Of a stretch of DNA of 64,000 bases, positions 3,616-46,312 are shown one piece after another. Within the stretch, counting starts at the first letter, position 1. Every line of letters begins with the position of its first letter. The stretch covers positions 1-64,000 of IMG/VR virus record IMGVR_UViG_3300027668_000013; one strand, 5' to 3'. The stretch is from a virus. Made by a program: the position numbers and the translations under genes. A model generated the notes under the pieces. The model did not search any database. It saw only the letters and a list, made by a program, of their open reading frames with translations, and was not told the origin of the DNA.

Positions 3616-3616
3616 A

Positions 3617-4345
3617 ATGGATCTACCAACAAAGCCACGTAAAATACTACGTGACAATCCCAAAGAATTAGTAATCTTTGGTAAACCCAAATGCGGTAAA
3701 ACTACAATAACTTCACATCTTACATTAGATGGAGACTGGTTATTATTAGAACTCGAAGACGGTGGTGCAGACTATGTAGAAGCAACTACATTATTTGCAA
3801 AAAGCTTATCTGATATTAAAGAGATAGGTAGCACAATCATGGCTAATGATAAACCATACAGTGGAATTATTGTAGATACTGTAACTAAACTCGAAGAATT
3901 GATAATGCCTCATGCAGCAGCTTTGTACAAGAAAACACCGATGGGTGTTAACTGGCAAGGCTCTGATGTGAGAACTTTACCAAAGGGTTCTGGTTATTTG
4001 TATATGCGACAAGCATTCTTTGAAGTGTTAGACTACATAAGATCGTGGTCTGATAATATTATCTTACTCGGACATTTGTCAGACAAGATGATCGAGAAGA
4101 AAGGCGAGGAAGTATCTGCAAAGGAATTAGACTTAACTGGTAAAATATCATCTTTGACGTGTGCAAGAGCCGATGCTATTGCATATTGTTACAGAAAAGA
4201 CAACCAAACTATTCTTAATTTCAAGAGTAGTGAGGATGTTATTTGCGGTGCAAGGTCTAAGCATTTAAAAGGACAGGAAATAGTGGTTGCCGAGTCCGAT
4301 GAAAAGGGAAATATCACATACAACTGGAATCAGGTTTATATTTAA
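3617..4345 (+). CDS. Sak4-like / AAA_24 ATPase (recombination, single-strand annealing)
   Basis: FGKPKCGKTT Walker A, LELEDG, IIVDTVT Walker B, LLGH, ADAIAY. Confidence 0.85.
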   Translation: MDLPTKPRKILRDNPKELVIFGKPKCGKTTITSHLTLDGDWLLLELEDGGADYVEATTLFAKSLSDIKEIGSTIMANDKPYSGIIVDTVTKLEELIMPHAAALYKKTPMGVNWQGSDVRTLPKGSGYLYMRQAFFEVLDYIRSWSDNIILLGHLSDKMIEKKGEEVSAKELDLTGKISSLTCARADAIAYCYRKDNQTILNFKSSEDVICGARSKHLKGQEIVVAESDEKGNITYNWNQVYI

Positions 4346-4376: not shown

Positions 4377-4802
4377 ATGTTCAATTTTCAAGGATTATCA
4401 AAACAAAAGACAGTAGAAAACTTTGACGTAAAAGTATTAGCTGCATCAAGAATTAAGTTAAGTCAAAACGCTAAAAATACTATCAGTTTAACTGATGATA
4501 AGCAAGTATTCTTAGATAAAGATGTAACTACAAATTCTTTCTGGATTGCCGCAGTAGAAGAAAACGGTAAGAAACTTACTTCAACTAACACTTTTGGTCA
4601 TAAAGTATTGAACCAAGCATTAGGAGAAAATACAGAGTGGAAGATTGACATTTTAAATTCTAAAGAACACGATGGTGTTACTTATTTTCCATTATCTTTG
4701 ATAGAAAAGACAGAAGAATCTGTGAAGACAATTACATTGGATAAAGTAGGAAACACTGTAGAAGCTGTAGAATTAGAAACTACGGAAGAAGAAACAGTTT
4801 AG
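4377..4802 (+). CDS. Hypothetical protein with acidic C-terminus
   Basis: Clean ORF, A-rich leader, acidic tail VELETTEEETV. Confidence 0.75.
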   Translation: MFNFQGLSKQKTVENFDVKVLAASRIKLSQNAKNTISLTDDKQVFLDKDVTTNSFWIAAVEENGKKLTSTNTFGHKVLNQALGENTEWKIDILNSKEHDGVTYFPLSLIEKTEESVKTITLDKVGNTVEAVELETTEEETV

Positions 4803-30000: not shown

Positions 30001-30337
30001 CTATTAATTGTTTTAATTTTTTTATAGATTCTTCTTTTTTAGAACCTTCGTAAATATTGTATTTAGTACGTAAAGAATTTAAAATTCTATTTCTTTGTTT
30101 AGAAATTTTCATAAAAAAGTCAGAGTCTAAATCCTGTTTTTCATTCATTTCAAAAGAAGCTTCAGAACCATCCGTCATTGAATAACTACCATCTGCATCA
30201 ATAATTGGCATTTCATAACCATTCTTAGAAAAAATAAAGTAGGCTTCTAATTCTCCTACTTTTTCTACTAAGATATTCCAATCGCTTTTTTCTTGAGTTG
30301 GATCTGTTTTAAAACTTATATTGGGACAATTTGCCAT
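27011..30337 (-). CDS. Large helical virion cargo/ejection protein (1108 aa)
   Basis: Directly downstream of the vRNAP; alpha-helical composition; hydrophobic helix LSMTVATLIASTLLVKL near the C-terminus. Confidence 0.7.
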   Translation of the reverse strand: MANCPNISFKTDPTQEKSDWNILVEKVGELEAYFIFSKNGYEMPIIDADGSYSMTDGSEASFEMNEKQDLDSDFFMKISKQRNRILNSLRTKYNIYEGSKKEESIKKLKQLIEDFEKADITKSILIYIQNIDSHLGYTKVVGGRKVDVTGSLIEKIESGSFKKSPGNLKRLRDYAGTFDMVKDLAKIIESRDDIPKSFKARIASAAGRVDSFDAKYIAYSKDVMVDILANESSLVRDTYKEKFAREFRVNNPRSKTKLSAKEHNLAAKAYIKQAMNDNAAKILREEKKTLREMLDVSKKDISAFSKLLIDPKGINDHLVQLTVQMLERAEKSSQAEFIDKRVDAIDTWKEFKKGFGKSVTPTNQKELYNNIIEKINGKETNYYVQLYYSTYYTAKNELNQKLFKEESAKKRRELKEEFQKNYPEKDNLNPQYFALQKDSRKKEMYDYLIQFNKDSDNNVPQQAKLGFKLPGISKALSETLTDNGAKKTASRVWKELKRVQKDESDKYGDLTEDGKGVKVVTDESGNVLKRVNIPFRSKLEYEDQSYDLMGMALTNRFVSLNYKNKNAIKTQIEVLSDIMGERSVVKNRGSKRLLSKVKNLAGVELDEEQEILESGKTSQSYELIKGIIEDRLYGRQMVKSDFKILGMDVDSLTDGLIGWSSNNFLIANYMGGGANMLAGKVMNWFEGVRGQHYGRKDLRAAELKYMLDFTNWSADIGRVGYPTSKTQMLIEKFVDTSMDFTGMSNKLTKDSRFKNMAGMQSLHAINSAAEHYIHGTVVYAFLNNKKVVNKNGEYIGKNGNVVATREEAISLDEAYYDPKDKEATKGKLTLKNKDWKVEGYEDAPDIEFVMSKILKEVVKDLHGNYDENNKAQIQRHWYGKLVFFLKKWMIPGVQRRWRGGENLFKDIDSNLEDRAMYSQFSEEFKEGTYVSGIMYLSKLWKHGKFMQTEVYSKEWNKLTDTEKGNIKSAIAELSMTVATLIASTLLVKLAEGVGDEDDERKIYALAYLMRRQYGELAFYTPVGIFGEGLRFIKSPSATISILEALYRTGVQLMEDGFGISPEYYERGQFKGESKTYVNVQKLFNPFYKQFVAKDVKKSYQYLVNTNTM

Positions 30338-30343
30338 AACTAT

Positions 30344-33300
30344 TTATTTACATGAGTTATTTAAAGATAATAACAATCCTTGAATGTCAAAGCGACTAAT
30401 CTTTGCTTTAGCCAAAGCTACTGCTTCTTCTTGAGTTGACGCACCTTTTGGTAACATACTTTTTCCTTCTTTTAAATCAGCAGCTGCATCTTTATCAACA
30501 TTTTCTATTAAAACATCATCAACTATATATGCTTGATAAACAACACTGCCTTCTACAATTTCTCTTCTAACTTCTACTCTAAATCCAGAAACTTCGTTTA
30601 CTCTAAAAACTTTAACTACAGACTCGTCTTCATTTTTAATTTCTTCTATTGAAGGAGGTTTAGGTAAATCTTCTACTTTAGGTACAGAAGCTTTATTTTC
30701 AACAACATCTGCAACCGTATCTTTTCTAAACTGTTCAACCATTTCTTTATCTTGAGGAACTTCTATTAGTTCAGAAGATAAAATAGACTGATGTTCTTCT
30801 GGAATTGGTTTACCAACTGAATTAGGACTATGGAATTTACCAAACTCTATATTCCCTTCTGTATCATAACTGTACTCTGTAGGAACTAATAAGATACTTG
30901 TAGTTGCAACTTCAAATCCTTTTTGTTCAAGCATCTCTTTATAGATACTAAGTTGTCTACTCCAACCTGTTAATTTAGATTCGAACATACCGTCATTATA
31001 TAAATTGCTATCCCAGAATTGTTGTTTGTCTGAATTAAATATTTTGTTTTTAAAATCAATAATGTGAAGTTTTCCATCTGAATCTACACCAAGTAAATCA
31101 AGAGTACCACCGATACCATCTTTTCCTTGGGCTTTGATTTGTTCTGCTGTAAAGTTTGCGTTTAAGAACAATTCTTTAGAAATAAATTTCATGTCAGGGA
31201 AAGACGATTTAATAGATGTTAAGTGATCTACTAATAAGTCAAACTCTTTTTGAGTTACGTTATTTAATTTAAATCCGTTTTCTTTATTTTGAGTATCTGC
31301 TTCTTTAACATATTCTGCTAAAGTTTTTACTTTACCACCATCAAAAATATCTCGTCCTACATTATCTACAAAGTTTCCTACAGAAGCTCCTGCTTTCATT
31401 GCTGGTTTAGCTTCAGATTGTTTAATTGCTTTATCTACAACCGCTTTTCCTATAGGAGATGTAATTCCTCCTTTTAAAACAGCTCCTGTTTTTAAATTAG
31501 TTATTTTCCCATTTTTAAAATCTACGCTATATTTAATACCATTGTATTCTACTCCTAATTTACGTGTTACATAATTAGATTGTCTTTCTAAAACTTGGTC
31601 TCCTAATTTATAAACAGACTCTTCGCCTATATCACTTTCAACTGTTGCCAAAGATGATTGTTTAGAAACTTCTTGTAAACCGTCAAGTTTACTTATAGTA
31701 GTTTCTGCTGGTGTTTGTTCAGTAGTTTTATTCATTTTTAACATTCCAGTATCAACCCATTCTTTACTAAATACAATATTAGAAGGTCTGTCTATTAAAC
31801 CTTCAGCGTCATTAAACATTTCAATCATTTCTAATCCTGTATAACCATTTAAAGACATTTCTGTAGTATTTCTATAAGCTACTTTAAATTGTTTATTAGG
31901 ATTTTGTTTAGCTGCTTCATATAGTTTAATTATACTTGTTGTAATATCTCCTTTAGAAATAGATTTAAAACCTCTATTTTCTTTTATTCTTAAGTCTTTT
32001 GTAGGTAAAGCATAAGCATTTCCTTGTAATCCTTCACCTTGTCCGGATGTAGCTCCAAATTGATCTTTAGCAATTTTAGCTGCTCCTTTTCCATGTCTCC
32101 CTTCAGGATTACTTCCGAATACAAATATAGTATTAGGTTCAGGAGTTATATTTCCTTCATAATACTGTTCAACATTTTCTTCTTCTGTTTCTTCCGTTTC
32201 TGTTTCTTCCGTTACTTCTTCAAGTATTGGTTCGTTACCATTTCTAAAAGAAGGACTATCATCATTGGTAATATATCCAACTCCAGAAGATTGATTACCA
32301 ATACTATTTTCATAGTCCGGACTTAGTGTGCTTTCAAAAGGACTTACAATTGAAGATTCAACCTCTGTATCATAAGCATACTCTGTTATATGATTTCCTT
32401 TTTGACTCATTCCTAAAGTAGGAACTCTTTTATAATATTGTTTTCCTCCTTTTTCTCCCATGCGTTTATATAATAATTTAGAAGTTTCATGTTTATATCC
32501 TGTATCAACATCTTCGTCTACAAATTTTTTCTTAGGTGTAAGTACAATAAACTTTCTAAGTTTACCCTCCCCATGATCTGAATAAAAAGAATAAGGAATA
32601 TATTTAGAATCTACACTAAAACCACCTTTGTATTTATTTAAAGCACCAGTTTTATCCGCAATACCTTTAAGCTTTTTATCATTTATAGTATGAGTAGGTA
32701 AAATATCAACATTATGACCAATAAATTGATCAAAGAAAGTATCAAAATTCACACCTTCTGCAAATGTGTTTTCCATAATAGAATTAAAAGGTAATACTCC
32801 ATCTTCCATTGATCTTTGTAAAATCGTATTTGGAATTAAATCGTAAAACGAATTTATATTTTTTTGGAAACCAGAAGATGCATAAGCATACTTTATTAAG
32901 TCTGTTGCAAATGCTTTTGTTTCTTCATTATCATATAACTCTTCCCACTCTAACCACAATGGATCTTTTTCTCTACCTTCTTTTTTCTTAGAAGAAGCAA
33001 AGGTAACAAAGTCTGGTCCTTTTCCAGGATTAACTAAAGTACCTAAAGAATTTAAAAAGGAATTAGAAGAATACAATTCTGTATTTCTCAATTTAAGTAA
33101 TCTTTTAGCCATACTTCTGTCTCCAAAAAACATTGCTTTTGTATTTTCAGGACTTAAATTAAGAGCATTTGAAAATGAATACGTTTGATATGCTTTAAGT
33201 ACTTTTCTATTAAATTCAACATCTGTACCATCATAATTTTGATATGTAGAGTTTAATCCTATTTCTTGATTTGTTTTTATAACAAGATCAATCATAGGTT

Positions 33301-36300
33301 TTTTAGCTGTTGAGAATAGATTCGACATTAAAGTTTGAACATCGTCAAATGCTGTTTCTTTCATAGCTCCAACAAAAGTCTCATTTATAATTGCCTTGTA
33401 CTCTTCTGCAAACTCTCCATCTAAAACTTCTTGTTCTAATTGTTTTGTAGCTATATGTTCTGCAATTCCAGAACCAGGCCCTGTAGTATCATACTTTGAT
33501 GCAGTAACCATTTTATTAAATTTTCTACCAAGTTGTTCTTGTTCCATAAAGAATAAGATCAATCCTGGATCGCTCTCGCCACTAACAATCATTTCTTCTA
33601 TCTCAGCTTCAGTAAATTCATTTGGTCCTTTAGAAGTTAATTTTTCTAATTCGGATTCTTTCATATTTAAATGAGAAAACTTTTCAAATGTTTTACTCCA
33701 AGGGTTTATAACACTATTGGTTGCAGAAGTTGTTTTTAAACTACCATTCTTAGTAAGCCCAAGTATTTTAATATGATCTTTCTTTTCTTTCTTAATTAAT
33801 TTACTGTTTTGAGAATCTATATTTTTTACATAATTTCTTATTTCTGGAAGAGATAACAATCTGTTTGCAGTACTTGCAGACATTCCTTGTCTCAACATAT
33901 AAAATACAGTGTTTGCGGTATTTAAATTGTTGTTAATTAAAGATATAAAAGGATCTTTCGCATTATCAACATATGCATTCATATAAGCCGATAAAGTTTC
34001 TGAAATAGATCTTCCATCAGTACTATAAATCTCAGCCATTTTTACAGCTTGTAATAAGTTGTGGTGAGTTAAATGATTTGCTGTTATACCAACACCTGCT
34101 TTACCACCAAGGTTTCTTTCTCTTATTTCATTTTGTGTAAATGGAGAAGCAAATTCTAAAGAACTACCAGGCCTCTGTTTAAAGAACTTAGCAGCAGCTT
34201 CATCTCTTAATCCTGTTGGTAAAGCCATGTAATTATTAAAAATTTCAGTTGGACTTAAAGCATCTCCTTTTTCATCAAGGAATAAGTTTAAGTCTACGTT
34301 GTCATCTGTCGCATACTTAGTATTTTTAAACCAATTTACAAATTCTTCTGTATTTTTTCTAATACCTAAAGTTTCAGTAAGAACATCCTCTAAACCATCT
34401 TTTTTAGAAGTATTGTCTTCTGATATATAATTTAATAAATGTAAATAATAAGCTTCGTTCTTTAACCAAGTTGTATCTACAGGTAATATAGCATCTGTAA
34501 ATGTACCTTTTGATTCTAATACACTTGCCCACATTTCCAATCTCTCGTTTTCAAGAGCCATTTCAGCTCTTTTACGAGCACCATATTTCTTTTTAGTTTT
34601 TGGATTTACTGCAAGTTTTGAGTTTTTATTATTAACTCTTTCAAGTATACCAGACTTAGGATTAAAGACAGTGTTGTACATCATTACGTACATCTTATCA
34701 ATATCAAAATCCGATCCTGTTTTACCAGTAATCTCATCGTACACAACTACACTATCTCCAGCAGAAGGAGGTAAAATTCCTACAATCTCAAGACTATCCA
34801 TCCCTGAAATTTTTTGGTTAGGAATACGATAACCTACTATGTTCTTAATTGTATCTCCAAGTGCGTCTTTTAAGTCTTTATCACTCATGTTTTCCCAACC
34901 TGGAATATTTTCTACATCTTTAAATGGTAAGTAAACTTGAGCTGACAAAGAACCATCCTCACGAATACGAGGACCTTTTAATTTGTTAGTACTCTTTGGG
35001 TCATAACCTTCTAAATGTCGAATATTATTTTTAGTAAATTTATCGATTTTGCTATAAGCAGCTGTTTTTTCAAAACCTTCTCCAGCAATTTGTACAAAAG
35101 ATCCACCAGTAGATGTTAATTTTATAGTAGCCTTTTTAAGCTCGGCAAATATTTCTTGTTCTATTTTATCAACGTGTTGAAATATTAAACTTAAAGGAAC
35201 CCTTGTTTCAAGTTGTTCTATTACGTTCATATCAACATTATCTCTTTTAAATTTCTCTATTAAATGTTCATAGATAGCTTCTTGATTTGTAATTCTTCCG
35301 TTTACTACATCATATTTTTGATCAAATTTCTGTCTACCTAAATGAGAAAGAACACTTTCTACCGCATTTATTTTTTGAGCCATTTGATCAGGAGTAAGTT
35401 TTTTTCCATTAAGAACGTATTCTCTTACATATTCTCCGTTAGCATTTCTTTCGAACATATTCTGAAATATGTTTTTACGAGGTTGTGAACCTACAAGTGC
35501 TTCACCTTTCTTCTCATATTTCGTAGGTAAATCTTGTTGTAGTTTCCAATGATAATTAGAAAGAGTAGTTGTTTTATAATCTACTTTACCACTAATTACA
35601 TCTTCTTTATTATAAACCGTACCTGCACCAGACTTAGCACCAGACTCATATATTACTTCGTCAATTGGATTATTAGGATTTCTCATTTTTTTAAGCAATC
35701 CTTCATGTGAAGTTCCTTTAACAAGACTCGGCCATAATACAGCTTGTGAATATTTAAGATAAGTAGGTACTGCAGATCCATTTTCATTACGTAATTCAAA
35801 ATGCATACCTTTTAGAGGTTGCATTGCTAAAAGATCTCTTGGGTCTGGATCTCCATCTTTATCCATTAATCTTTCAAAAGCTTCATCGTAATTAGTTGGC
35901 CAATTACCAAGTCCTATCATTAAAGACTTGAATCTTTCTGGAGTAATAAAAGCTTGACCATCTGCTTTATTTAACTCGTTTTTACGATAAGGTTTTAATA
36001 TTGCTATTGCTTCTTCTTTAGTGTATGCGTTAACATCTTTTCCATTACGAACAATCTTTTGATTCATAAGATGATTTAAATAATCATCGTACTGCTCACT
36101 TGTTTCTGTATCAGCATCTTTTATTACTAATATTTTATAGTCTTTAGGAGTATTGTACTTTCCAAATTCATCTTTTGTAAAAATTAAATCTGAACCTTGA
36201 CCTGAAGTAGCTGGTGTACGTTTAGATATATCCTTATAGAATGCAGGATCTCCTGTAAACAACATTGTAAATTCTATATTTGCTGTCATTGAATTTACCA

Positions 36301-39300
36301 TATAATCAAGAACCATATTATTAACAGCATCTGTTTCAGTTGCGTTTTCATTTTGATAATGATTTAAAACGGTAGAATCTATACCAATTATTGTTAATCC
36401 TCCTTCTGGATTTTCTTTTATAATATTATTATCTTTTAAAGTCTGTACAGCTTTTTCGTGTTGTAATTCTATAGTTTCTTTAATATGGTTTTTAACTTTT
36501 ATTACAACTTTTTCGTCAGAAATATTTACCACACCTTTACTATCAAACAAACCTATTTCTTTTGCCAAGGTAGTTCCAAATGATAATTCTGGAAACCAGA
36601 AAAACTTTTTACTTCCTTCGTTATCAAAATATTCGTTTCCGGTTTTATTTTTTTTGTTTCGAGCGTTTGAATATCTATCTACTTCTGCAGTAAAATATTG
36701 AAACATATCCTCTACGGCCTTATGATCGGCATTACCGTTTTTATCTACATTAATTAATTGTCCATTTTGAGCAACCCTATATTGATCCATTGGGAGCCCA
36801 GTAAACATAAAGTGAGAACTTTTATCTGCAAGTGTAAGTGGAGAAAATACAGAACCATTTTTATTTCTAACTCCATTTAAAACTTTGTTCATACTATCAA
36901 GTTGCATATCAACAGTGGTCATGTTCTTAAACGCTGTACCAGGATCTGATGAGTCGTTCTCAACTCTGTTTGATAAATAAACTTGTACTGCAAATTCTTC
37001 TAATCTTTGCTTACTTTGAGAACTTAATTCTTGAGGTTCTAAACTATTAAAGTCATACTCATCTCCAAGTAAGAACTTAATCCATTTTGAAGACTGATGA
37101 TATTTACCACTATTAAGTAATTTACTTAAAGATGTATGGTCTTGTTTCCACTGATTAACATTTTTACTAATAAAGTTGTTTAATGACTTAGTCCAGTACA
37201 AGTTATTCTCTGGTCCTAAAACCATATTTTCAAGAGTGTCTTTTTTACGGTATCCTTCAATTGATGCAAAAGTTTGGAAAATAGAATTTTCAGTAATAAA
37301 GTCTGAATTTTCATCTGTATCAAAATCATAATCTTTACTAATCATTTTTTCTAAAGTCAAAGACTTATTGTTTCTTGCGTAAGAAGAACCTGACTTTATA
37401 ATCTTTCCGTTTGCGTCTTTTACTTGTGTAGTTCCAGGCTCAAGAAAAGGGAATATCATTTTCTTTAAAAAAGAGTTTCTAAACTTACTCGCTTCTGAAG
37501 CATTAGTTACTTTTTCATAGACTCCAGGGACAACTTGTTCTGTAAGTTGACTACCCATTACATATGATTGTAATGATTCTGGTGAAACTTCGATACCTAA
37601 TGTATCAAGAGCATCTGAAATAGTAATGTAATAACTAAAGTCAAATTTTCCTTCGTTTCTTTTGTTAAAACCTTTTAAGTCATCATTAAGTTCTATAGCA
37701 ATAGATCTAAATGTTTCAACAACTTCAGATAATTTTTTTCTTGCACGTACTTCAGTAGCCGTGTCTGGTTTGAAATCACCATTTTCAATAAATTTATACC
37801 TGAAGTTTTCACTAAACTGGTTTCTTAATAATTTAGCATGTGATTGTTGATCTGCATTTCCTATTTTATAATTATACTCCTCCCCTTCGACTATAACCCC
37901 AGTGTGATTGTACGTAATTTTTTGTTTAGAAAACGCTCTATAAAATTGAACCTTTTTAAATAAAGGAACAACGTCATCAGGAGCTTCCAATTGACTTATC
38001 AGTTCATTAAACTCTGGATGAGTTACTGCTAAACTTTTTATTTTGTTTAACATTTTATCAACTTGATCTCCGTTAGAATCTTCAACAATGTTAGCAAGAC
38101 TGTCTTCTAACATTCTCCAAGACACTTCAAACGGAGCAAGTTTTTTAAACTTACCTCCAAAGTTTTTAGAAGTTGTATTTGGATCAGCTAACATCTTTAC
38201 CATAAATCTGGTATTGTGTGTAGCATTGTCTTTACCAGAATAAGTAAGTGCTTGTCTAATATTTAAATCTCCACTCACATCATCTTCTTGTGTCTCACCC
38301 ATTGGAGTTTCGTCTGTAATAGATTCAGAGTCTAAAAGAGCAAAGCTTTTAAGTGAGTCTTTAGATAGTTCTACAAGGTCTTTCCAGTTATCTAATTTTT
38401 TATCTGCACTATGAAGAAGTTCAAGCTGATCAAAAGTAACCCAATCATCTGTTACATCAGCTTCATCGTATGCCATGTTTATTTCATTGACAATATCTTT
38501 TCTTATTATTTCAAAAATATCATCTAAGTCTTCAAAGCCTTCTTGAACAGATAGATCCATAGATCTTATCCCAGCCATTTGAATTGCTTGATAAGTAATG
38601 TGATCAACAGCTTCGTGTATAAGATCTTGTTTTATACCACCTTTTAATCTTGAATTAATAATTCTTTTTGAATGAGCAAAAGGAGGAATGTAATCAAATC
38701 TACCTCTTCTTATTTGTGAAAATATCTTTCCTTTGTTAGTTCTAAATGCATCTACTAAGTCCATTAGTAAATCATAAATCCATTTAACAGAATTAGGAAC
38801 CTTCATTGTTCTTTTAGAAAGCATGTACTCTCTAAACTCTTCTGCTAATATCTCTTCAGCTTGAGCAGCGTTTACAGCATATTTCTTTTGTACTTTCTTA
38901 AGAAGGTTGTTTCTTTCTCTTAAAGTTAAATAACCGTCCATTACAGCATGGAAACCTTCATGGTATGCAATACCTTCGTTAGCTCCGTTAGCAATAGTAA
39001 CAACACCTTGATAAAACTGACCTTCTGCAACACCACCATAAGCACCTGCTATTAAAGTTTTAGCAACTTCAACTGGAACATGAGGTAATATTAATGCTAA
39101 GTTTTCAAGTTCTTTAGTAATGTCTGCTTCAGTTTTTCTTTTTGAGTATATTGAATATGTAGGATCATCTTTTATTTCTTTTTCTATTTCTTTTTTTCTT
39201 TCAATAGGAACAGTATTTATTAAAGTTTGTTCTTGTGGAGTAAAATCAGTAATTATTTTACCGCTAATCATATGTCTGACTAACTGTTCTGCTTTTTGAG

Positions 39301-42300
39301 TATCAGTTCCTTTATTTTTATTATTAGCAACTTCTCCATTAGCTACAATTTCTTTTTGTTTAGTAGTTAACGTTTCTACTTCTCTACGATTTCTTACTTT
39401 TTTTGTACCAGGATTAGGTTTAGCTAACCCATTTGCATTCTGATTATCAGTCTCACTCGCTACTTTACCTTTTCCTTCAAGTGAAGTAGCAATTTTTATA
39501 TCGGGTATATTTGTTGGAAACTTGTCTGTTTGATTTTCAGGATTTCCTTCTACTCTTCCATTAGCTTCTTTTTGAGTTACATTAAGAGGGTTTCCTTCTT
39601 TTTTTCCAGAAGTATTATTTTTATTTTGATAAACAGCCTTTTTCTTTGGTGCACCTTTATCTTTAAATTCATTAGGTCCTGGAGTAGTAGTATCGACATC
39701 TGCTTCTTTAGCTATTTCTGCAGCAGTTTGTTCTTTTTGTGCAGCTGCGTCTTTTTGTGCAAATGCTTTAACTGATTCTTCAAGAATGTTTTTAGTTCTA
39801 CCAAATACTTTTAGTATTGCCCCACTGTCAGTTTGAGACATGGACATCACTACACCTTTTCTATTTACTACATACTTAAACTTGTTTTCCTTTCCATTTT
39901 TATCTACATACGAATCTTCAACAACAACAGCATCTCCTTTTTTTATTTGATAGTTTGCAAATATTTTATTTCGTACTGTATTTTTTGTACCCTCTTTAAA
40001 TGCAAAAACTTCTACACCTTTATGATTTAAAATTTGAGAACCTTTAATAAAGTATCTTGATTTTTTTTGCTCTGCTTTAGGAGCATTTGGGTTCCTTATA
40101 TAAAAAACTTCATTTGAATTAGGATCTGTAATATCAGGTACTGTTTCAGATTTAGTAGAGGTATCTCTTGATGGGAGTTTTCCTCTTATTTTATAAAATT
40201 CTCGACTTGCAATAACAAAATTTATAGCGTCTTTTACAGCGTCTTTTCCTTTAAACGTTGTTTGTTTTCCATTAATTTCTACATACCAAACACTTTTTGC
40301 TCCTTTTCTAACTCCGATGTCAAATGTTTTACCAAAACTATCTACTACTTTATTTAAGTATTGTGCATCTGTTAAAGGTTTAACTTTAGTAGGAATATAA
40401 GCTACTGGTAATACTTCTTCTTCTCCTATTTTATCACCAGCATCTTCTATTTCTTTTCTAACTTTTGGATATAGTTCTGTTAGGTATTCAATAGCTTCTT
40501 TTGCAGTATAAAATGACTTTGATTTGTTACGACTTTTTACATTAAAAGTATTTTCTCTTCCCCCCTGTGTTATCGTAATCGTATTGTTCTTAGGCAAAAA
40601 CTCTTTGAAATGATTACTAAGTTCCGTAAGTTTAGAAATATCAGTTAATTCATTATCTGCATTTTCTTTTAAGTCAGAAGGTTTTACCTCATCGTTAGAT
40701 TTAGATATTTCTTCTTCTTTTTCTCTAATCTTTTTTTGAGCGTCTGTTTCAAATGAAGTTCTTTTTGTTTCTGATTTTTTGAAACCAGTAGTTTTTTTGA
40801 AAAAAGAATCTTCTCCATTTTTTAAAAGAATCTCAATAAGTCTTTTACCTGCTTCAACTCTTTTAGCAGGCATGTCTTTTGTTCCATAATTTGTAGCAAT
40901 CTCTTGTAAAGTACTAATAATACTTTCATCACCCCTTTTCTTTAAAGTAGATCTAATTTCTTCTACTAATTGTTTAGCTTCTTCATTGTTTGGAAAAACT
41001 TGTTCTTTAAGAAAAACTGTTAGTGCGTTATACGTAGTATAATTATTTGCCTTTATTCTAAGAGCATCTAATCCTAACCAAGTTTTATTATAAAAATTTT
41101 CTGAAAGAACAGGTTCTGATTTTATAGAAGGATCTGATATTGCTTTTATACCAGCAAGAGTATCATCGTAATCATAAAATTCATGAATGTCTTCTTTTGT
41201 TATTTCTTCTTTCCCAGTACCAGTTAAAAACCCCCAGTTTGATGTTTCTTTTTTACCACCAATCTTTTTCCAGTTCTTTGGTTCACTCATAATAACTGTA
41301 GGATTAACAAACAGTCTATTACTTGGGAATGTAGCATTTGTACTTAATGCTTTTTGAGAAAATTGAAAATCATTGTAATTAGTATCTGAAGGAATTTCAT
41401 CACCAAACCATGTAAATGTAGTGTTACCAACATCTGTTTGATTTAATTTTTGATTAAGAAATTTTGCATTTGTTGTTCTCCACATTACTGCAAGAGATTC
41501 TGCAATTTCTAATTGAACACTTGACTCTTGTAATTCAGAAAGTTCAACTTTCTTTTTATTTTTTCCAAAAGTTATAGAAGGGCTTGGCTTGTCTGATAGA
41601 TTTATCCAAAAAGGATATTCTGTATTTAAACTGGCTTGGCCCGTATAGATTAACAAATCCATTATATCCTTATTTCTAAGTCCTGATATATTAGATTTTC
41701 CATTAAACAAAGCAGCAGAGTCGGCACCTTCAGCATATGCTACAAGTACTTCCATGATTGCTTGTATCTCTTTATTTTCTAACTTTCTTGAGTTAAGTTT
41801 TAATGGGAAAGGTTTATTGTCAAGACTTCTTACTTTCATAAAAACAAATCCTGCAAGTCCCCCTACACTCGCTCGACCTGAGTTTTCAAGTTCTTCATCT
41901 TCTATATTCTCTTTAGTATCATACACAAGACCAACACCATCAGAGACTAATAATTTTCCTTCTCCGTTTGCTTTAGGTTTATCAAAAAACTCACTTGGAT
42001 CATTTCTTAATCCTGTTTTAGTATCAGACTTAAGTATTCCAGTTGAAACACTTTCTATTTTAGTTTCATATGTTTCACCATTTAGTAAAGCTTTTATTAT
42101 ATCTTTTCTTGCTGCAGTAACGGATTCGTACTGACCTTCAACATTTAAATCAAAAGGCAATTTAAAACGACCATAAACTTCTTTAGCTAAAACTTTTATC
42201 TTATTACCATTTCTATCATAAGCAACCATTCTAATTGGAAGGAATTGCATATCTTCTTCAGTTAAAGAATTTGGATCATTAAAGAATTTATCTATAGCTT

Positions 42301-45300
42301 TAGCTGCTTCACCTTCTCCTTTAGTAGCCCATTTTGCTTTACCGTCTGCTTTATCAACTTCAAATCTAAAGGAAGTACCTCTCTTATCTGTAATCTCACT
42401 TTCTAACCAATCAGAAATACCACTATCATCTAAATCACCAACACCATCGGAAGAAGAAACATAGGCTAAACTCCAACCATACTTCTCATTCATTCCTTTT
42501 TGCTTACTATTATGAGAATTACTTATTGGAGGATTTATTTCAGGATTAGTAACATCTGTAACTACAACATCTTTATTAGCTTTATCCGCAGCTATTTCTT
42601 GCGCTGTAGCAGCAGCTGCTACTTCTGAAGCAAGTTTACCACTGGGATCAAGATTTTCAGTTATTACTTCTGTAACAGCTTTCAATGTTTCAGAAGTAGT
42701 TTGAGTTGTTCCTTCTGGATTTGGATTACCTGGTTGAGAATTATCTGTAACACCAGTAAGGTCTACTACTGAAATACCATCAGGTACTTCTTTAGGTCCT
42801 GTTTCAGCTTCAAGATTTACTCCTGCTGCTTTAGCTAATGCATCTATTTCAGCTTGGAGAGCATCTGCTTTATTAGTAACAGCTTGCTTTAATCCATTTT
42901 CATTTACTTCTGCAACAGTTTCAGTAATGCTTAATTTATTTTCTTCCGGTACTTCAGTAGGTACTTTATTAGCTCCTGTGTTTGTTTCTGTAGGTTGTCC
43001 TTTTATAGGCCCGTCTTCTCCTTTACCAACTACAAGGGCTCCATCTCCACCACCTTCTCCTTCAATTACTTCTGTTGTATTTTCTTCTTCAAATTCAGAA
43101 TCTATATTTCCATCAACTAATGTTTCTAAATATTTATCAACTCTATATTTAAAACCATCTGCAGTTTCATGAATTTCAATCGCTTTTAATTCATTGATTG
43201 CTATATCATATCGAGCACTCATTTTTTCTCTTTGTGCAGCAACCTGTTCTTTCTTTTGTTTGTATACAGTTTTTGCAACAGCTCTTTCTGAAATAGCTTT
43301 TTTCATTTCTGCTCTTTCTAAACTATGCTCTTTACGTAAACTGGATTCAGCTTCTTTTAATCTTTTATATTCGGTAGGTGAGTACTTTATATTTATTTTT
43401 TGTTTTTCTTGTAAAGTAAGACCTTCTTTGTTCTTACGCATGTATCCGTACTTACCAATTTGCTTCTCTTGTTCAAAAGCATTAAGTTCTTGTTTAGCTT
43501 TACTGTAAGCACGACCAGTTGTAGATACTTTATCTCTTTGTTCTTTGAAGTCGTATTCGTTCTTTTCTTTCCAATCATCCCAGGCTTTAGAAGATTTAGC
43601 ATCAATTGCTATTTTCATTCTTTTTATAGCATTAATTCTTTTCTCAGATCTCATGACTTGGTCTTTGACGTCATTCATCTCATCTGTGATTTCTTTATTT
43701 GCTACATTTAATTTGTCAATTAAATCCTGTCTTTGTTTTTTACTTAACTCAACTTTACCAATCATTGCCAGATTGGTATAAACATCTTTTTCATTAAATG
43801 TTTTAGTTTCAATTTCGTTTGTTAAGTACTCATGATATTTTTTCCTAAGTAATTTTTTAGATTTTGCAGAGTTTTCAAATTCAAAAGTTTTAGACAAACC
43901 TTGATACCCAACCCAAGCACTCATTTTTTTACCTGCTGTTTCTACAAACTTTTTATAAGAATCAAGAGATTCTATTTCATTATCAGATATGTATTTTCCA
44001 AATGATTCTGAACCATCTCCTTTCTTAACTTTAACTTCTTCTTCAAGCTTCCCAATCTTCTTTTCAATTTCTGCTTCTTTAGCAATAAGTTGTTCTGCTA
44101 ATCCTATTTTTAATTCTGGATTTTTGTTAAGCTTGGATCTCATTTGATTCAATGCTACCATTTCGGCTTTAGTAGCCATTAGTTCTAATTGTAAAGGACT
44201 AACGTCTTTTCCACTAACACTTTTAACTTCTTTTATAATTGAATTTCTACTAACATCTAAATCCTTATCAATTGCCGTCATTGTTTGCTTTAACCCATCA
44301 ATTCGAGACTTTAATTTAAATAAATCATTTGCTTTAGCAGTACCATGTTTATTGTATAAGCTCATGTAATCTGAAGAGTAGCCTTCTAATTTTGATAATA
44401 AAGCAGTTGCTTTTGTTTGATCTTCAGCAGTATATCCTTCTCCACCAGCTTCAACTTCTTTTAAATGATTTTCAAGACCTTCTATCATACCCCTATTTGC
44501 GTATCTTGCAAACAAGCCTTCAAATCTTTGATTTTCTATATCCTCCATTGCTGTACCGTCTTCATCTAATACAGCATCTTTATAGGCCATCATAAGATTA
44601 CCTTCTTCTTTAAAGAATTTATCAAGATCTTCTTTTGCTTTTAGGTTTGTACCAAGCCTTCTATTTTCTATATAGTTTACGTATTCTTGTTTTTCAAGTG
44701 TGTGTTTATTTTTTCTTTCTTGATACCCTTTCATTTCAGCATCAAATTCTTTTACAGATTCATTGTACTGATCTTCTGAAACACCAGACTCATCATAAAC
44801 TTTTTTCTTTTCTCTGTAATCATCCCACTCTTTTGCTGTAACAACTTTAGATGCGTCTTCTTTACTAACTCCTTTATTAGCAGCCATGTATTTTTCAACA
44901 GGATCTAAAGGAGCGGGTCCTTCTGGAACAGATTGTTCCTTTACAATATCTCCTCTCTTAGGTCTTTCTTCTGTAAATTCTTTTGGTTTGGTAACAGGGT
45001 CTATAAGTCCTGCCGCTTCTCTTGCTTTAGTTATACTTGCTGAAAAAGCCTTTACAGTATAATGTTGAAAAGGACCTCCAATAAATCCCATAAAACCTTC
45101 AGTCAAACCTTCTTCGGAAGTTGCATAATCAGTAGCCCTACCTAAGTAAGAAGATTTATCTTTTTGTTCTAATCCAAGTTGAATAAGAGCATCTCTTGTA
45201 TTATCTTTTTGAAAGAATCCAGCAGACATTTCTTCAAATGATTCTCCTAATCCGTCTTTAAGATGGTTTCCCATTTGTTGCTTAAAGCCTTGTTTCATTC

Positions 45301-46312
45301 CTCCTCTAATCGTACCGTTCCCTTTAATAATACCTCTTAAAGCAATCGCATCTGTAAAAACGTTTACTTTATTATACAGCATAAAGTCTGATACTTCACT
45401 ATCAGCTATCTTTACAGCTTCTGCGTAAGACACATCATTTGCAAGTGCTTTATCCATAATTTCTTTGTGCATTTCTGCACCCATCATTACAGATTCAGCA
45501 TAGTTAGTAACAGCTGCTGTTCCAAGTTGTGTTATAATTTGTTGTGGGATTTTACCCATCTTAACTAAAGTCCCTATTAAACCTGTAGCACCTTTAACTA
45601 AACTTCCAGCACCAGCACCAATACCAGCAAAACCAACTGTAGAATCTACAAGTCCTTGCAGTCCCCGCATTGTTTGTGCCATTGCGCTATCTCCATAAAT
45701 ACCATTGTATTCATCGTACTTTTCTTTTCTTTCGCCAGCCCATTCAGATAACATGTTTGTATATCCTTCTTCAAATGAATTTGAAAATCCAAACCATTGT
45801 GGTACATCGGCAATATAACCAACGTTTTGAATAAACGTCATTGTACCTTTATAAACACCTCCAGCTACAGCTCGTGTAAGTTGAGAACCAAAATTTTGAG
45901 CTTCTTCAAATGCTTTATCAGCATCGGCATTTACTTTTAGAAAAGCGTTTTGTGGAATTTCATATTCTTCGGCTTCGGCTAATTGAGCGTCAGTAATTGC
46001 TTTAGATTGTAAAGATATATCTTCAAATTCTGAACTACTAACTCCATCTTCTTCATCAAAGTAATTAGACATTTTATCAAACCCGGAAGTATCGTCAACA
46101 GCTGGTTCTTCAACTACTTCTTCTTCAAGATTAGTATCTGCAACTACTTCATTATTAATAACTTCCGGTTTTTCTGGACTTATTTCTGTTCCTTCCTTAA
46201 CCTCTGCTCCAGATCCCACAACCGTAGGATTAACTTCAGTTTCTGGCGTTTCATTTTTATTATTTGATGCAACACCATCTTCGTATAATCTTTCATTAAT
46301 CCTACTTGCCAT
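30344..46312 (-). CDS. Giant virion-packaged RNA polymerase polyprotein (5322 aa)
   Basis: GSDFDIDK catalytic motif (DFDIDK at 34694-34711), YRIPNQ, ADGQAFI, YLKYS and AYVDNAKD motifs of crAss-like vRNAPs; HEGFH zincin motif; extra C-terminal domains. Confidence 0.92.
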   Translation of the reverse strand: MASRINERLYEDGVASNNKNETPETEVNPTVVGSGAEVKEGTEISPEKPEVINNEVVADTNLEEEVVEEPAVDDTSGFDKMSNYFDEEDGVSSSEFEDISLQSKAITDAQLAEAEEYEIPQNAFLKVNADADKAFEEAQNFGSQLTRAVAGGVYKGTMTFIQNVGYIADVPQWFGFSNSFEEGYTNMLSEWAGERKEKYDEYNGIYGDSAMAQTMRGLQGLVDSTVGFAGIGAGAGSLVKGATGLIGTLVKMGKIPQQIITQLGTAAVTNYAESVMMGAEMHKEIMDKALANDVSYAEAVKIADSEVSDFMLYNKVNVFTDAIALRGIIKGNGTIRGGMKQGFKQQMGNHLKDGLGESFEEMSAGFFQKDNTRDALIQLGLEQKDKSSYLGRATDYATSEEGLTEGFMGFIGGPFQHYTVKAFSASITKAREAAGLIDPVTKPKEFTEERPKRGDIVKEQSVPEGPAPLDPVEKYMAANKGVSKEDASKVVTAKEWDDYREKKKVYDESGVSEDQYNESVKEFDAEMKGYQERKNKHTLEKQEYVNYIENRRLGTNLKAKEDLDKFFKEEGNLMMAYKDAVLDEDGTAMEDIENQRFEGLFARYANRGMIEGLENHLKEVEAGGEGYTAEDQTKATALLSKLEGYSSDYMSLYNKHGTAKANDLFKLKSRIDGLKQTMTAIDKDLDVSRNSIIKEVKSVSGKDVSPLQLELMATKAEMVALNQMRSKLNKNPELKIGLAEQLIAKEAEIEKKIGKLEEEVKVKKGDGSESFGKYISDNEIESLDSYKKFVETAGKKMSAWVGYQGLSKTFEFENSAKSKKLLRKKYHEYLTNEIETKTFNEKDVYTNLAMIGKVELSKKQRQDLIDKLNVANKEITDEMNDVKDQVMRSEKRINAIKRMKIAIDAKSSKAWDDWKEKNEYDFKEQRDKVSTTGRAYSKAKQELNAFEQEKQIGKYGYMRKNKEGLTLQEKQKINIKYSPTEYKRLKEAESSLRKEHSLERAEMKKAISERAVAKTVYKQKKEQVAAQREKMSARYDIAINELKAIEIHETADGFKYRVDKYLETLVDGNIDSEFEEENTTEVIEGEGGGDGALVVGKGEDGPIKGQPTETNTGANKVPTEVPEENKLSITETVAEVNENGLKQAVTNKADALQAEIDALAKAAGVNLEAETGPKEVPDGISVVDLTGVTDNSQPGNPNPEGTTQTTSETLKAVTEVITENLDPSGKLASEVAAAATAQEIAADKANKDVVVTDVTNPEINPPISNSHNSKQKGMNEKYGWSLAYVSSSDGVGDLDDSGISDWLESEITDKRGTSFRFEVDKADGKAKWATKGEGEAAKAIDKFFNDPNSLTEEDMQFLPIRMVAYDRNGNKIKVLAKEVYGRFKLPFDLNVEGQYESVTAARKDIIKALLNGETYETKIESVSTGILKSDTKTGLRNDPSEFFDKPKANGEGKLLVSDGVGLVYDTKENIEDEELENSGRASVGGLAGFVFMKVRSLDNKPFPLKLNSRKLENKEIQAIMEVLVAYAEGADSAALFNGKSNISGLRNKDIMDLLIYTGQASLNTEYPFWINLSDKPSPSITFGKNKKKVELSELQESSVQLEIAESLAVMWRTTNAKFLNQKLNQTDVGNTTFTWFGDEIPSDTNYNDFQFSQKALSTNATFPSNRLFVNPTVIMSEPKNWKKIGGKKETSNWGFLTGTGKEEITKEDIHEFYDYDDTLAGIKAISDPSIKSEPVLSENFYNKTWLGLDALRIKANNYTTYNALTVFLKEQVFPNNEEAKQLVEEIRSTLKKRGDESIISTLQEIATNYGTKDMPAKRVEAGKRLIEILLKNGEDSFFKKTTGFKKSETKRTSFETDAQKKIREKEEEISKSNDEVKPSDLKENADNELTDISKLTELSNHFKEFLPKNNTITITQGGRENTFNVKSRNKSKSFYTAKEAIEYLTELYPKVRKEIEDAGDKIGEEEVLPVAYIPTKVKPLTDAQYLNKVVDSFGKTFDIGVRKGAKSVWYVEINGKQTTFKGKDAVKDAINFVIASREFYKIRGKLPSRDTSTKSETVPDITDPNSNEVFYIRNPNAPKAEQKKSRYFIKGSQILNHKGVEVFAFKEGTKNTVRNKIFANYQIKKGDAVVVEDSYVDKNGKENKFKYVVNRKGVVMSMSQTDSGAILKVFGRTKNILEESVKAFAQKDAAAQKEQTAAEIAKEADVDTTTPGPNEFKDKGAPKKKAVYQNKNNTSGKKEGNPLNVTQKEANGRVEGNPENQTDKFPTNIPDIKIATSLEGKGKVASETDNQNANGLAKPNPGTKKVRNRREVETLTTKQKEIVANGEVANNKNKGTDTQKAEQLVRHMISGKIITDFTPQEQTLINTVPIERKKEIEKEIKDDPTYSIYSKRKTEADITKELENLALILPHVPVEVAKTLIAGAYGGVAEGQFYQGVVTIANGANEGIAYHEGFHAVMDGYLTLRERNNLLKKVQKKYAVNAAQAEEILAEEFREYMLSKRTMKVPNSVKWIYDLLMDLVDAFRTNKGKIFSQIRRGRFDYIPPFAHSKRIINSRLKGGIKQDLIHEAVDHITYQAIQMAGIRSMDLSVQEGFEDLDDIFEIIRKDIVNEINMAYDEADVTDDWVTFDQLELLHSADKKLDNWKDLVELSKDSLKSFALLDSESITDETPMGETQEDDVSGDLNIRQALTYSGKDNATHNTRFMVKMLADPNTTSKNFGGKFKKLAPFEVSWRMLEDSLANIVEDSNGDQVDKMLNKIKSLAVTHPEFNELISQLEAPDDVVPLFKKVQFYRAFSKQKITYNHTGVIVEGEEYNYKIGNADQQSHAKLLRNQFSENFRYKFIENGDFKPDTATEVRARKKLSEVVETFRSIAIELNDDLKGFNKRNEGKFDFSYYITISDALDTLGIEVSPESLQSYVMGSQLTEQVVPGVYEKVTNASEASKFRNSFLKKMIFPFLEPGTTQVKDANGKIIKSGSSYARNNKSLTLEKMISKDYDFDTDENSDFITENSIFQTFASIEGYRKKDTLENMVLGPENNLYWTKSLNNFISKNVNQWKQDHTSLSKLLNSGKYHQSSKWIKFLLGDEYDFNSLEPQELSSQSKQRLEEFAVQVYLSNRVENDSSDPGTAFKNMTTVDMQLDSMNKVLNGVRNKNGSVFSPLTLADKSSHFMFTGLPMDQYRVAQNGQLINVDKNGNADHKAVEDMFQYFTAEVDRYSNARNKKNKTGNEYFDNEGSKKFFWFPELSFGTTLAKEIGLFDSKGVVNISDEKVVIKVKNHIKETIELQHEKAVQTLKDNNIIKENPEGGLTIIGIDSTVLNHYQNENATETDAVNNMVLDYMVNSMTANIEFTMLFTGDPAFYKDISKRTPATSGQGSDLIFTKDEFGKYNTPKDYKILVIKDADTETSEQYDDYLNHLMNQKIVRNGKDVNAYTKEEAIAILKPYRKNELNKADGQAFITPERFKSLMIGLGNWPTNYDEAFERLMDKDGDPDPRDLLAMQPLKGMHFELRNENGSAVPTYLKYSQAVLWPSLVKGTSHEGLLKKMRNPNNPIDEVIYESGAKSGAGTVYNKEDVISGKVDYKTTTLSNYHWKLQQDLPTKYEKKGEALVGSQPRKNIFQNMFERNANGEYVREYVLNGKKLTPDQMAQKINAVESVLSHLGRQKFDQKYDVVNGRITNQEAIYEHLIEKFKRDNVDMNVIEQLETRVPLSLIFQHVDKIEQEIFAELKKATIKLTSTGGSFVQIAGEGFEKTAAYSKIDKFTKNNIRHLEGYDPKSTNKLKGPRIREDGSLSAQVYLPFKDVENIPGWENMSDKDLKDALGDTIKNIVGYRIPNQKISGMDSLEIVGILPPSAGDSVVVYDEITGKTGSDFDIDKMYVMMYNTVFNPKSGILERVNNKNSKLAVNPKTKKKYGARKRAEMALENERLEMWASVLESKGTFTDAILPVDTTWLKNEAYYLHLLNYISEDNTSKKDGLEDVLTETLGIRKNTEEFVNWFKNTKYATDDNVDLNLFLDEKGDALSPTEIFNNYMALPTGLRDEAAAKFFKQRPGSSLEFASPFTQNEIRERNLGGKAGVGITANHLTHHNLLQAVKMAEIYSTDGRSISETLSAYMNAYVDNAKDPFISLINNNLNTANTVFYMLRQGMSASTANRLLSLPEIRNYVKNIDSQNSKLIKKEKKDHIKILGLTKNGSLKTTSATNSVINPWSKTFEKFSHLNMKESELEKLTSKGPNEFTEAEIEEMIVSGESDPGLILFFMEQEQLGRKFNKMVTASKYDTTGPGSGIAEHIATKQLEQEVLDGEFAEEYKAIINETFVGAMKETAFDDVQTLMSNLFSTAKKPMIDLVIKTNQEIGLNSTYQNYDGTDVEFNRKVLKAYQTYSFSNALNLSPENTKAMFFGDRSMAKRLLKLRNTELYSSNSFLNSLGTLVNPGKGPDFVTFASSKKKEGREKDPLWLEWEELYDNEETKAFATDLIKYAYASSGFQKNINSFYDLIPNTILQRSMEDGVLPFNSIMENTFAEGVNFDTFFDQFIGHNVDILPTHTINDKKLKGIADKTGALNKYKGGFSVDSKYIPYSFYSDHGEGKLRKFIVLTPKKKFVDEDVDTGYKHETSKLLYKRMGEKGGKQYYKRVPTLGMSQKGNHITEYAYDTEVESSIVSPFESTLSPDYENSIGNQSSGVGYITNDDSPSFRNGNEPILEEVTEETETEETEEENVEQYYEGNITPEPNTIFVFGSNPEGRHGKGAAKIAKDQFGATSGQGEGLQGNAYALPTKDLRIKENRGFKSISKGDITTSIIKLYEAAKQNPNKQFKVAYRNTTEMSLNGYTGLEMIEMFNDAEGLIDRPSNIVFSKEWVDTGMLKMNKTTEQTPAETTISKLDGLQEVSKQSSLATVESDIGEESVYKLGDQVLERQSNYVTRKLGVEYNGIKYSVDFKNGKITNLKTGAVLKGGITSPIGKAVVDKAIKQSEAKPAMKAGASVGNFVDNVGRDIFDGGKVKTLAEYVKEADTQNKENGFKLNNVTQKEFDLLVDHLTSIKSSFPDMKFISKELFLNANFTAEQIKAQGKDGIGGTLDLLGVDSDGKLHIIDFKNKIFNSDKQQFWDSNLYNDGMFESKLTGWSRQLSIYKEMLEQKGFEVATTSILLVPTEYSYDTEGNIEFGKFHSPNSVGKPIPEEHQSILSSELIEVPQDKEMVEQFRKDTVADVVENKASVPKVEDLPKPPSIEEIKNEDESVVKVFRVNEVSGFRVEVRREIVEGSVVYQAYIVDDVLIENVDKDAAADLKEGKSMLPKGASTQEEAVALAKAKISRFDIQGLLLSLNNSCK

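Follow-up and report, generated by a model that had tools for sequence, protein, structure and literature searches.

A 5322-residue RNA polymerase protein, probably packaged in the virion of a marine crAss-like phage, with a macrodomain-fold and nuclease cassette behind the polymerase

The crAss-like phages count among the most abundant of known viruses, and both the way in which their cargo leaves the particle and its role in the first seconds of infection are barely understood. Here we describe a single giant gene in a window of 64,000 nucleotides (IMG/VR virus record IMGVR_UViG_3300027668_000013, positions 1 to 64,000), whose product of 5322 amino acids is denoted P0001.

The closest described systems are the polymerase blocks of the phages phi14:2 (gp67, gp66 and gp65) and crAss001 (gp47, gp50 and gp49). 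[quoted passage not shown] As described by Drobysheva et al., some phages fuse the three polymerase-block proteins into a huge polyprotein, and one carries a zincin-like domain. The size of P0001 and its zincin-polymerase fusion are already known, from the literature as well as from IMG/VR crAss-like loci, where they are common.

P0001 is an in-frame fusion of a gp47/gp67-type cargo module, closed by a zincin-like domain, with a two-barrel RNA polymerase of the gp50/gp66 type, and a clade-specific cassette is inserted between the polymerase body and the conserved C-terminal tail. The new aspect is this cassette, a macrodomain-fold module and a predicted nuclease ahead of the conserved cysteine-bearing tail. 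An original prediction, made from the letters of the window, had read the protein as one ejected chain that fuses membrane-channel, protease, polymerase and host-takeover functions. In this architecture, Drobysheva et al. describe the fusion of cargo module, zincin and polymerase, whereas the macro-plus-nuclease cassette was found in no paper, nor was any paper found that combines Crassvirales with macrodomains. The functions themselves are partly retained: zincin-like, crAss-type polymerase, macrodomain-fold and PD-(D/E)XK modules do lie in one chain, and the membrane channel is not supported. Under the criterion for polyvalent proteins, at least two disparate enzymatic domains, P0001 has these four modules, and it fits both the polyvalent protein concept (PMC5512222) and the idea, put forward in PMC9503650, of Macro, NADAR and SLOG domains being packaged and injected. 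Taken as one claim together with the mechanism given below, we consider it likely that P0001 is a polyvalent protein packaged in the virion of a marine crAss-like phage.

The gene occupies positions 30344-46312 on the minus strand in a single frame of 5322 codons, with an ATG start and no internal stop. Because stops are frequent in random frames of such low-G+C DNA (about 31% in the window), its length is far beyond chance. The closest relative, P0002 (5453 amino acids), is 71% identical over 88% of the length. The predicted frame is borne out, as are the motifs read in it, with GFAGIGAGAGSLVKGATGLIGTLV at residue 227, HEGFH at 2451, DFDID at 3868, GSN at 4733, HGKGAA at 4740 and IIDFK at 5084, and the acidic leader (22% Asp plus Glu in residues 1-200). 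A simple composition heuristic places low-complexity stretches at residues ~1081-1220, 1841-1900, 2201-2340 and 4701-4760, the last covering the acidic linker region 4691-4715. The predicted low-complexity linkers are thereby upheld; for the long coiled coils predicted alongside them, such a heuristic is the one source.

Scans of both halves of P0001 with Pfam, PHROG and NCBIfam gave no match except A1S_2505 / PHROG 2072 within the cassette, and a megablast search with the complete gene in 50,697 phage records gave none. A search for related loci with the single protein returned nothing; an alignment-based profile then gave loci, and 79 IMG/VR loci were found with the polymerase profile. The protein is divided into the following features (evidence in brackets):

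30344..46312, minus strand: whole open reading frame (ORF) P0001, probable polyvalent virion RNA polymerase protein, 5322 amino acids (ORF and closest relative P0002)
43613..46090, minus strand: module A, residues 75-900, gp47/gp67-type cargo part including a Gly/Ala-rich segment at residues 221-250 (conserved in relatives)
41243..42631, minus strand: module B, residues 1228-1690, strongly conserved domain (alignment A1)
39173..41242, minus strand: variable insert, residues 1691-2380, low-complexity linkers and two small conserved units (absent in P0004-P0007)
38633..39172, minus strand: zincin-like domain, residues 2381-2560, HEGFH at 2451-2455, candidate third ligand E2486/E2487 (conservation, profile, model)
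32243..38632, minus strand: two-barrel virion RNA polymerase, residues 2561-4690, DFDID at 3868-3872 (window 34697-34711) (PDB 6VR4, BLASTP)
32168..32242, minus strand: acidic linker, residues 4691-4715 (sequence)
31730..32167, minus strand: A1S_2505-family macrodomain-fold module, residues 4716-4861 (NCBIfam NF049995, PHROG 2072, AF2 fold)
30626..31450, minus strand: predicted PD-(D/E)XK nuclease, residues 4955-5229, D5072, D5086-x-K5088, Q5120xxxY (alignment A5, homologue profiles)
30347..30625, minus strand: conserved C-terminal tail, residues 5230-5322, with C5321, the only cysteine of the protein (codon 30350-30352) (A1)

The predicted polymerase core around DFDID is confirmed. A phmmer search against PDB 6VR4 (phi14:2 gp66) gives E = 2.4e-93 over residues ~3008-4177 plus a weaker N-terminal stretch, similarity to 6VR4 spanning residues ~2630-4350 of P0001. 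BLASTP against phi14:2 gp66 (E = 7e-100) aligns 1464 columns at 28% identity with the GSDFDIDKMYVM stretch identical, and crAss001 gp50 matches the polymerase with E = 6e-20. The DFDID motif aligns to that of gp66 and is invariant in alignments A1 and A2. By sequence comparison, the P0001 polymerase is a crAss-type two-barrel virion RNA polymerase of the phi14:2 gp66 family; its end near residue 4690, where the acidic linker starts, is placed by extrapolation.

The fusion is seen against relatives in which the genes are split. Complete polymerase ORFs among the 79 loci fall into two groups, with lengths of either ~2,000-2,700 amino acids (polymerase alone) or 3,500-5,549 amino acids (cargo module with zincin and polymerase, in some cases with additions). 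Where the polymerase is short and stands alone, the genome carries modules A and B in a separate upstream ORF. Module A is kept in P0004-P0007 as well as in loci L002 and L018, and is part of a separate upstream ORF in the split loci L008, L016, L021, L055 and L075. Module B, with many invariant columns in A1, has matches in the upstream ORFs of L009 and L016, and a weak one to residues 1088-1122 of phi14:2 gp67 (E = 0.008).

Other arrangements also occur. A 5549-residue ORF (L047:2823-19469) fuses cargo module, zincin, polymerase and a gp65-like protein, the gp65-like match covering residues 4894-5513. In P0009 (3650 amino acids, from a Tara sample) the polymerase is fused to a gp65-like C-terminal half, with DUF7831 (E = 2.6e-36) and an HExxH motif between the two. 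P0003 (3988 amino acids; 64-71% identical in the parts aligned by BLAST) starts at the equivalent of residue 1207, inside a low-complexity linker.

The cassette is delimited by comparison with P0004-P0007, where the polymerase runs directly into a tail of ~90 residues that ends in a cysteine; P0001 has 540 residues inserted before this tail. The first part of the insertion, residues 4716-4861, matches NCBIfam NF049995 (A1S_2505; E = 1.2e-27, 96.3 bits versus a cut-off of 45) and PHROG 2072 (E = 5.9e-31). Invariant or nearly invariant are G4733, S4734 and N4735, H4740, G4741 and G4743, T4771 and K4772, as well as G4823, Y4824 and G4826. An AlphaFold2 (AF2) model, built from an alignment with 27 stand-alone family members, has a pLDDT (predicted local distance difference test) of 90.2, and the GSN..G.HG.GAA domain of the original prediction is by this model a folded module with a macrodomain fold. 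Foldseek matches the model to the alphavirus macro domain and TARG1 (E = 7e-4), and VIA-align to TTHA0132 (Z = 11.1), TARG1 (10.9) and DarG (9.7), with YmdB within the range 11.1-9.7; the overlap is 123-134 residues at a root mean square deviation of ~3 Å (Z 10-11). The top 50 VIA-align matches are without exception macrodomains, macrodomain-containing chains or scaffolds built on them. In the model, the conserved GSN..G.HG.G and NGYTG stretches lie at strand-to-helix loops, where macrodomains hold the diphosphate. We call the module macrodomain-fold, and do not file it in PF01661, because no sequence-level link to Pfam Macro or to solved macrodomains was found. By protein-language-model features only, A1S_2505 / PHROG 2072 resembles DUF7831. 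The best functional precedent for such a module would be AdfM, a phage macrodomain able to strip DarT2 marks from DNA (PMC13309987).

The second part of the cassette is predicted to be a RecB/Cas4-like PD-(D/E)XK nuclease, in agreement with the original reading. D5072, D5086, K5088 and Q5120 are invariant in 8 homologues of 20-82% identity (alignment A5), four of which match Pfam PDDEXK_1 (PF12705; best E = 3.7e-6) and two Cas4. The nearest neighbours in the ESM Atlas, found by a protein language model, are PDDEXK_1 clusters in 27 of 30 cases, and the best PDB profile match is weak (E = 0.94) and again a PD-(D/E)XK protein. Residues 1698-1871 of crAss001 gp47 (L081:1120-8145) are homologous to this segment (E = 2e-6) and are followed by the zincin and then the terminal cysteine. 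Further homologues are found in gp67-like or gp65-like proteins of other loci, in L026 upstream of the zincin. The sequence comparisons thus suggest that the nuclease is a recurrent member of the polymerase block with a shifting position.

In the direction of transcription, P0001 is preceded by genes for a tail ring protein (Pfam CrAss_Ring_1, E = 1.6e-40), a muzzle protein (crAss_MUZ, E = 2.7e-34), and proteins of 892 and 1487 amino acids, and is followed by a further cargo gene:

27011..30337, minus strand: downstream gene, 1108 amino acids, gp65/gp49-type cargo protein with C4 as its only cysteine (codon 30326-30328) (BLASTP and cysteine positions)

The downstream product matches phi14:2 gp65 (E = 4e-76) and crAss001 gp49 (E = 4e-38) in BLASTP. 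Judged by its gene content, the neighbourhood is a cargo block as described for crAss001. The virion link that had originally been proposed gains from this position beside the muzzle and ring genes, and from the homology of P0001 parts to virion proteins of phi14:2 and crAss001 detected by mass spectrometry. The 1487-residue cargo protein (46374-50837) has a weak CHAP match (E = 2.6e-4, below the cut-off) and, at its C-terminus, a match to the PHROG 'baseplate hub and tail lysozyme'; C1329, the one cysteine it has, is inside this C-terminal domain and could be catalytic.

A second line of evidence concerns cysteines. P0001 has a single cysteine in 5322 residues, C5321, the second to last; the next protein has one in 1108, C4. 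T5293, A5297 and C5321 are invariant in A1. A cysteine within the last 8 residues is found in 50 of 52 complete polymerase ORFs; the corresponding figures are 26 of 281 for other ORFs and 0.5% as the expectation from composition. The two exceptions are L047 and a polymerase that is split into two ORFs. Stand-alone polymerases have a further cysteine at position 3-6 (18 of 18), the downstream proteins one at position 2-7 (47 of 48 orthologues), and the upstream gp67-like proteins of split loci a terminal one in about 21 of 22 complete cases (by inspection of ORF ends). The described phages follow the same pattern: in phi14:2, C1797 is the last residue and only cysteine of gp67, gp66 has only C3 and C2179, and gp65 only C3; in crAss001, gp47 has only C2339, gp50 has C5 and C2404 plus C1334, and gp49 only C5. 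Where cargo module and polymerase are fused, as in P0001 and most other such proteins, the junction pair is gone. P0009, in which the polymerase is fused to the gp65-like part, has a single cysteine at position 7 and none at its C-terminus, and L047, with all three fused, has no terminal cysteine, as the rule predicts. Two side observations may be added: across L001-L081, the terminal cysteines are usually the only ones in the proteins of the block; and P0003 has no N-terminal cysteine and is either a truncated gene call or a split without a cysteine pair.

The most economical reading of these patterns would be a disulfide or metal bridge that strings the polymerase block into one thread, with C5321 probably tethering the chain to C4 of the next cargo protein. 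A precedent exists in cyanophage A4, where a disulfide between Cys1715 of gp27 and Cys5 of gp26 links two ejection proteins in a cryo-EM (cryo-electron microscopy) structure (PMC12002296). Neither the phi14:2 preprint nor the crAss001 paper (PMC10172136) mentions a terminal-cysteine link.

Together, these observations suggest the following mechanism. By analogy with its homologues in phi14:2 and crAss001, P0001 would be kept inside the capsid, pass through the tail in a partly unfolded state before or together with the DNA, and refold in the cytoplasm, where it would transcribe the early genes. The fold, together with the examples of DarG, TARG1 and AdfM, suggests that the macro-like module may remove ADP-ribose from nucleic acid, or degrade an ADP-ribose-derived signal, as the unprotected genome enters; being attached to the polymerase, it would act on the template DNA. 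The nuclease may act on DNA at the same early moment. A disulfide between C5321 and C4 would form in the particle and be reduced in the cytoplasm and, if present, the whole polymerase block leaves as one thread. In its strongest form, which we put forward tentatively as a possibility short of likely, the proposal is that ~6,400 residues leave the capsid as one string via the C5321-C4 disulfide and are separated in the reducing cytoplasm, that gene fusion and cysteine pairs are interchangeable, and that swappable nucleic-acid-cleaning payloads (a DarG/TARG1-like ADP-ribose remover, a nuclease) act on the template as it comes in, ahead of all phage gene expression.

Several points count against this interpretation. 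The macrodomain relation is drawn from the modelled fold: Pfam Macro gave no match to the module at E up to 1, a profile of 28 A1S family members found no macrodomain in the PDB, and a shared fold gives no substrate. The equation of K4772 and N4735 with the catalytic residues Lys84 of TARG1 and Asn of DarG is presumed. The nuclease segment of P0001 itself has no match to the Pfam PDDEXK_1 model, and the structural matches of the zincin model reach Z of only 5-6.8, a range where the tool warns of common arrangements. The disulfide is deduced from comparative patterns, and packaging, ejection, processing and all enzymatic activities of P0001 are argued from analogy.

The zincin-like domain raises the question of whether the chain stays intact. 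HEGFH is the only HExxH in P0001, and within alignment A3 (25 sequences) H2451, E2452 and H2455 are invariant and E2487 nearly so. The A3 profile finds the Pro-Pro endopeptidase Zmp1/PPEP-1 in the PDB with E = 0.04 and both motifs aligned; no Pfam peptidase model is significant for the domain. The AF2 model (pLDDT 76.5) matches the catalytic domain of anthrax lethal factor (Z = 6.8), PPEP-2 (6.6), IrrE/PprI (5.8) and ArdC (5.0), and in an unbiased search of 48,161 chains the top structural matches are all zincins, at Z of only 5-6.8; the Foldseek E is 0.16. The zincin predicted from HEGFH is supported, as a zincin-like domain, by the invariant HExxH, the downstream Glu and these matches. It lies exactly at the joint of cargo module and polymerase and may process the chain. 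In that case P0001 could be a true polyprotein, which the zincin-like domain cuts at assembly or after ejection such that the parts act separately and no single chain is ejected. We judge this unlikely, while taking it seriously. Apart from the position of the zincin, it is favoured by phi14:2 and crAss001, which encode the orthologous parts as separate proteins, and by the acidic and low-complexity linkers on the flanks of the modules; cleavage of the fused forms is suggested by Drobysheva et al., and autoprocessing by such peptidases is proposed by Iyer et al. (PMC5512222). However, the C-terminal end of crAss001 gp47 carries a homologous zincin domain (residues 2093-2295, 46 residues from the end; E = 1e-36) even though the genes are split, so that cutting the joint cannot be its sole role, and the terminal-cysteine pairs at split joints suggest selection for continuity of the chain.

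For the cassette, the preferred reading as a payload against host defence draws on its variability. A comparison of accessory domains across related virion polymerases had been proposed as a check on the original prediction, and it reveals a payload that varies between close relatives. P0002 has the nuclease and no A1S match; 170 of its residues that do not align with P0001 begin with a GGQTGADR stretch, and a precomputed assignment gives Pfam family PF12694, which appears to occupy the macro-like slot. P0003 carries the nuclease together with a divergent A1S-family domain that contains an insertion. The A1S module is found in 3,318 cluster representatives at E up to 0.001. The best 149 of these include 41 small stand-alone proteins and 53 giants of at least 2,000 amino acids; 39 of the 53 giants match the crAss polymerase profile, and among the 36 of these where both could be placed the module follows the polymerase span in 16, precedes it in 13 and lies within it in 7. 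Identity of the module to that of P0001 is 41-79%, compared to 22-39% for the polymerase part in those carriers that were aligned by BLAST. Further additions in other carriers are a PIF1-like helicase, DUF7831 and a weak match to an AlkB-type dioxygenase, and the gut phages cr116_1 and cr50_1 have giant proteins with a macrodomain fold like that of P0001. An exact 27-base search in IMG/VR for the 5' joint of the macro cassette found nothing, hence there is no sign at the DNA level of a recent cassette exchange for this phage. Where compared, the module is unusually well conserved across P0024-P0172 relative to the far more diverged carriers, and in some proteins an inserted domain divides it, as seen from the two-part matches of P0068, P0074 and P0117.

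The accessory domains might also serve the phage's own handling of DNA and RNA, or the packing of the capsid, instead of counter-defence: the nuclease could act on genome ends or in recombination, and the macro-like module could be a nucleotide binder or remove side products of RNA repair. In general, crAss-like phages have one to three genes for PD-(D/E)XK nucleases without an assigned function (PMC7886860), crAss001 gp47 and many gp67-like proteins contain a homologous nuclease segment as a fixed part, and macrodomains also process ADP-ribose-1''-phosphate from RNA repair (PMC9503650). Yet the macro slot varies between close relatives and the module turns up at different positions, and in unrelated giant proteins, at 55-79% identity, a pattern typical of arms-race payloads; the phage macrodomains with a proven role act against DarT (PMC13309987). 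A purely internal role is on balance improbable.

The membrane channel of the original prediction concerns the N-terminal part, where Gly/Ala-rich helices would insert into the membrane and the same chain would also build the ejection channel. A Gly/Ala-rich hydrophobic segment at residues ~221-250 is indeed conserved in P0001 and its relatives, and ejection proteins of other podoviruses form channels (PMC10172136). The best 19-residue Kyte-Doolittle mean of the N-terminal part, however, is 1.32 (0.96-1.52 in relatives), under the usual membrane-helix cut-off of ~1.6, and hydropathy at transmembrane level is found in no segment. For crAss001, gp45/gp46 are assigned the channel role and a predicted membrane helix (PMC10172136); their counterparts here are separate proteins, those of 892 and 1487 amino acids. 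Because the hydropathy is below membrane-helix level and the crAss001 channel role falls to gp45/gp46, we regard a channel formed by P0001 as highly doubtful, and the channel reading was rejected on hydropathy. The N-terminal 2500 residues have no sequence match in the PDB. Within them, the variable insert comprises 690 residues that are absent from P0004-P0007, and no internal repeat was found in it. Its two small units (residues 2078-2168 and 2338-2380) are found again, at 43-63% identity, close to the C-terminus of separate upstream gp67-like proteins (L023, L017 and L025).

That the giant ORF is an artefact of assembly or gene calling that joins separate genes has next to no probability: nothing was found in its favour, the suspicion being raised solely since relatives have split forms, and it is contradicted by the same continuous frame in independent metagenomic relatives (P0002 and many ORFs of 3,500-5,549 amino acids in IMG/VR) and by the absence, inside P0001, of the junction cysteines that mark split genes. 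Two antisense ORFs on the plus strand within the gene, of 126 (41754-42134) and 104 amino acids (43194-43508), are probably chance frames.

Read as a packaged polyvalent protein, P0001 presents the polymerase as a carrier of exchangeable enzyme modules, with a role beyond starting transcription. One of these modules has the fold of enzymes that erase ADP-ribosylation of DNA, a bacterial weapon against phages. If the modules are active, counter-defence in crAss-like phages would be pre-loaded in the particle and positioned on the template. The terminal-cysteine pattern in turn bears on how several megadaltons of protein are ordered for ejection.

Compared with the phi14:2 gp67-gp66-gp65 and crAss001 gp47-gp50-gp49 blocks, P0001 has a homologous polymerase core with an identical catalytic DFDID stretch, a similar neighbourhood of cargo genes with a gp65/gp49 homologue downstream, and the same terminal-cysteine pattern; with crAss001 gp47 it also shares the zincin domain and the nuclease segment. 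It differs in that the gp47/gp67-type protein and the polymerase form one ORF, in the macro-like module and nuclease placed after the polymerase and before the tail, and in the 690-residue variable insert. phi14:2 differs further, as the A3 zincin profile has no match to its gp65, gp66 or gp67; its only HExxH lies in gp65.

The polyvalent proteins of PMC5512222, which include N4-like virion RNA polymerases with a zincin-like peptidase, resemble P0001 in uniting enzymatic domains of several unrelated kinds in a giant polypeptide whose gene lies among virion genes, in pairing a zincin-like peptidase with a polymerase that starts transcription, and in their predicted delivery with the DNA. crAss-like phages are mentioned neither in this survey nor in PMC9503650, and the Pfam MPTase-PolyVal model has no match to P0001. 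The N4 polymerase is a single-subunit, T7-like enzyme, in contrast to the two-barrel enzyme of P0001, and the partner domains in the survey are ART, lysozyme and PBECR domains instead of a macro-like module and PD-(D/E)XK.

With DarG and TARG1, the module shares the macrodomain fold at the Z-scores given above, a Gly-rich loop that follows the first core strand and another loop with Gly that precedes a helix. It has no detectable sequence similarity to DarG, TARG1 or AdfM, A1S_2505 / PHROG 2072 being a separate family. AdfM (PhiKZ gp104, PMC13309987) is moreover a soluble early protein, whereas the P0001 module is embedded in a probably packaged polymerase and its activity is predicted. The cyanopodophage A4 offers the nearest parallel to the proposed thread: there, a near-C-terminal cysteine is bonded to Cys5 of the next ejection protein, and here C5321 faces C4. 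The proteins are unrelated and belong to a different phage group, and the crAss-like link is suggested by comparative patterns.

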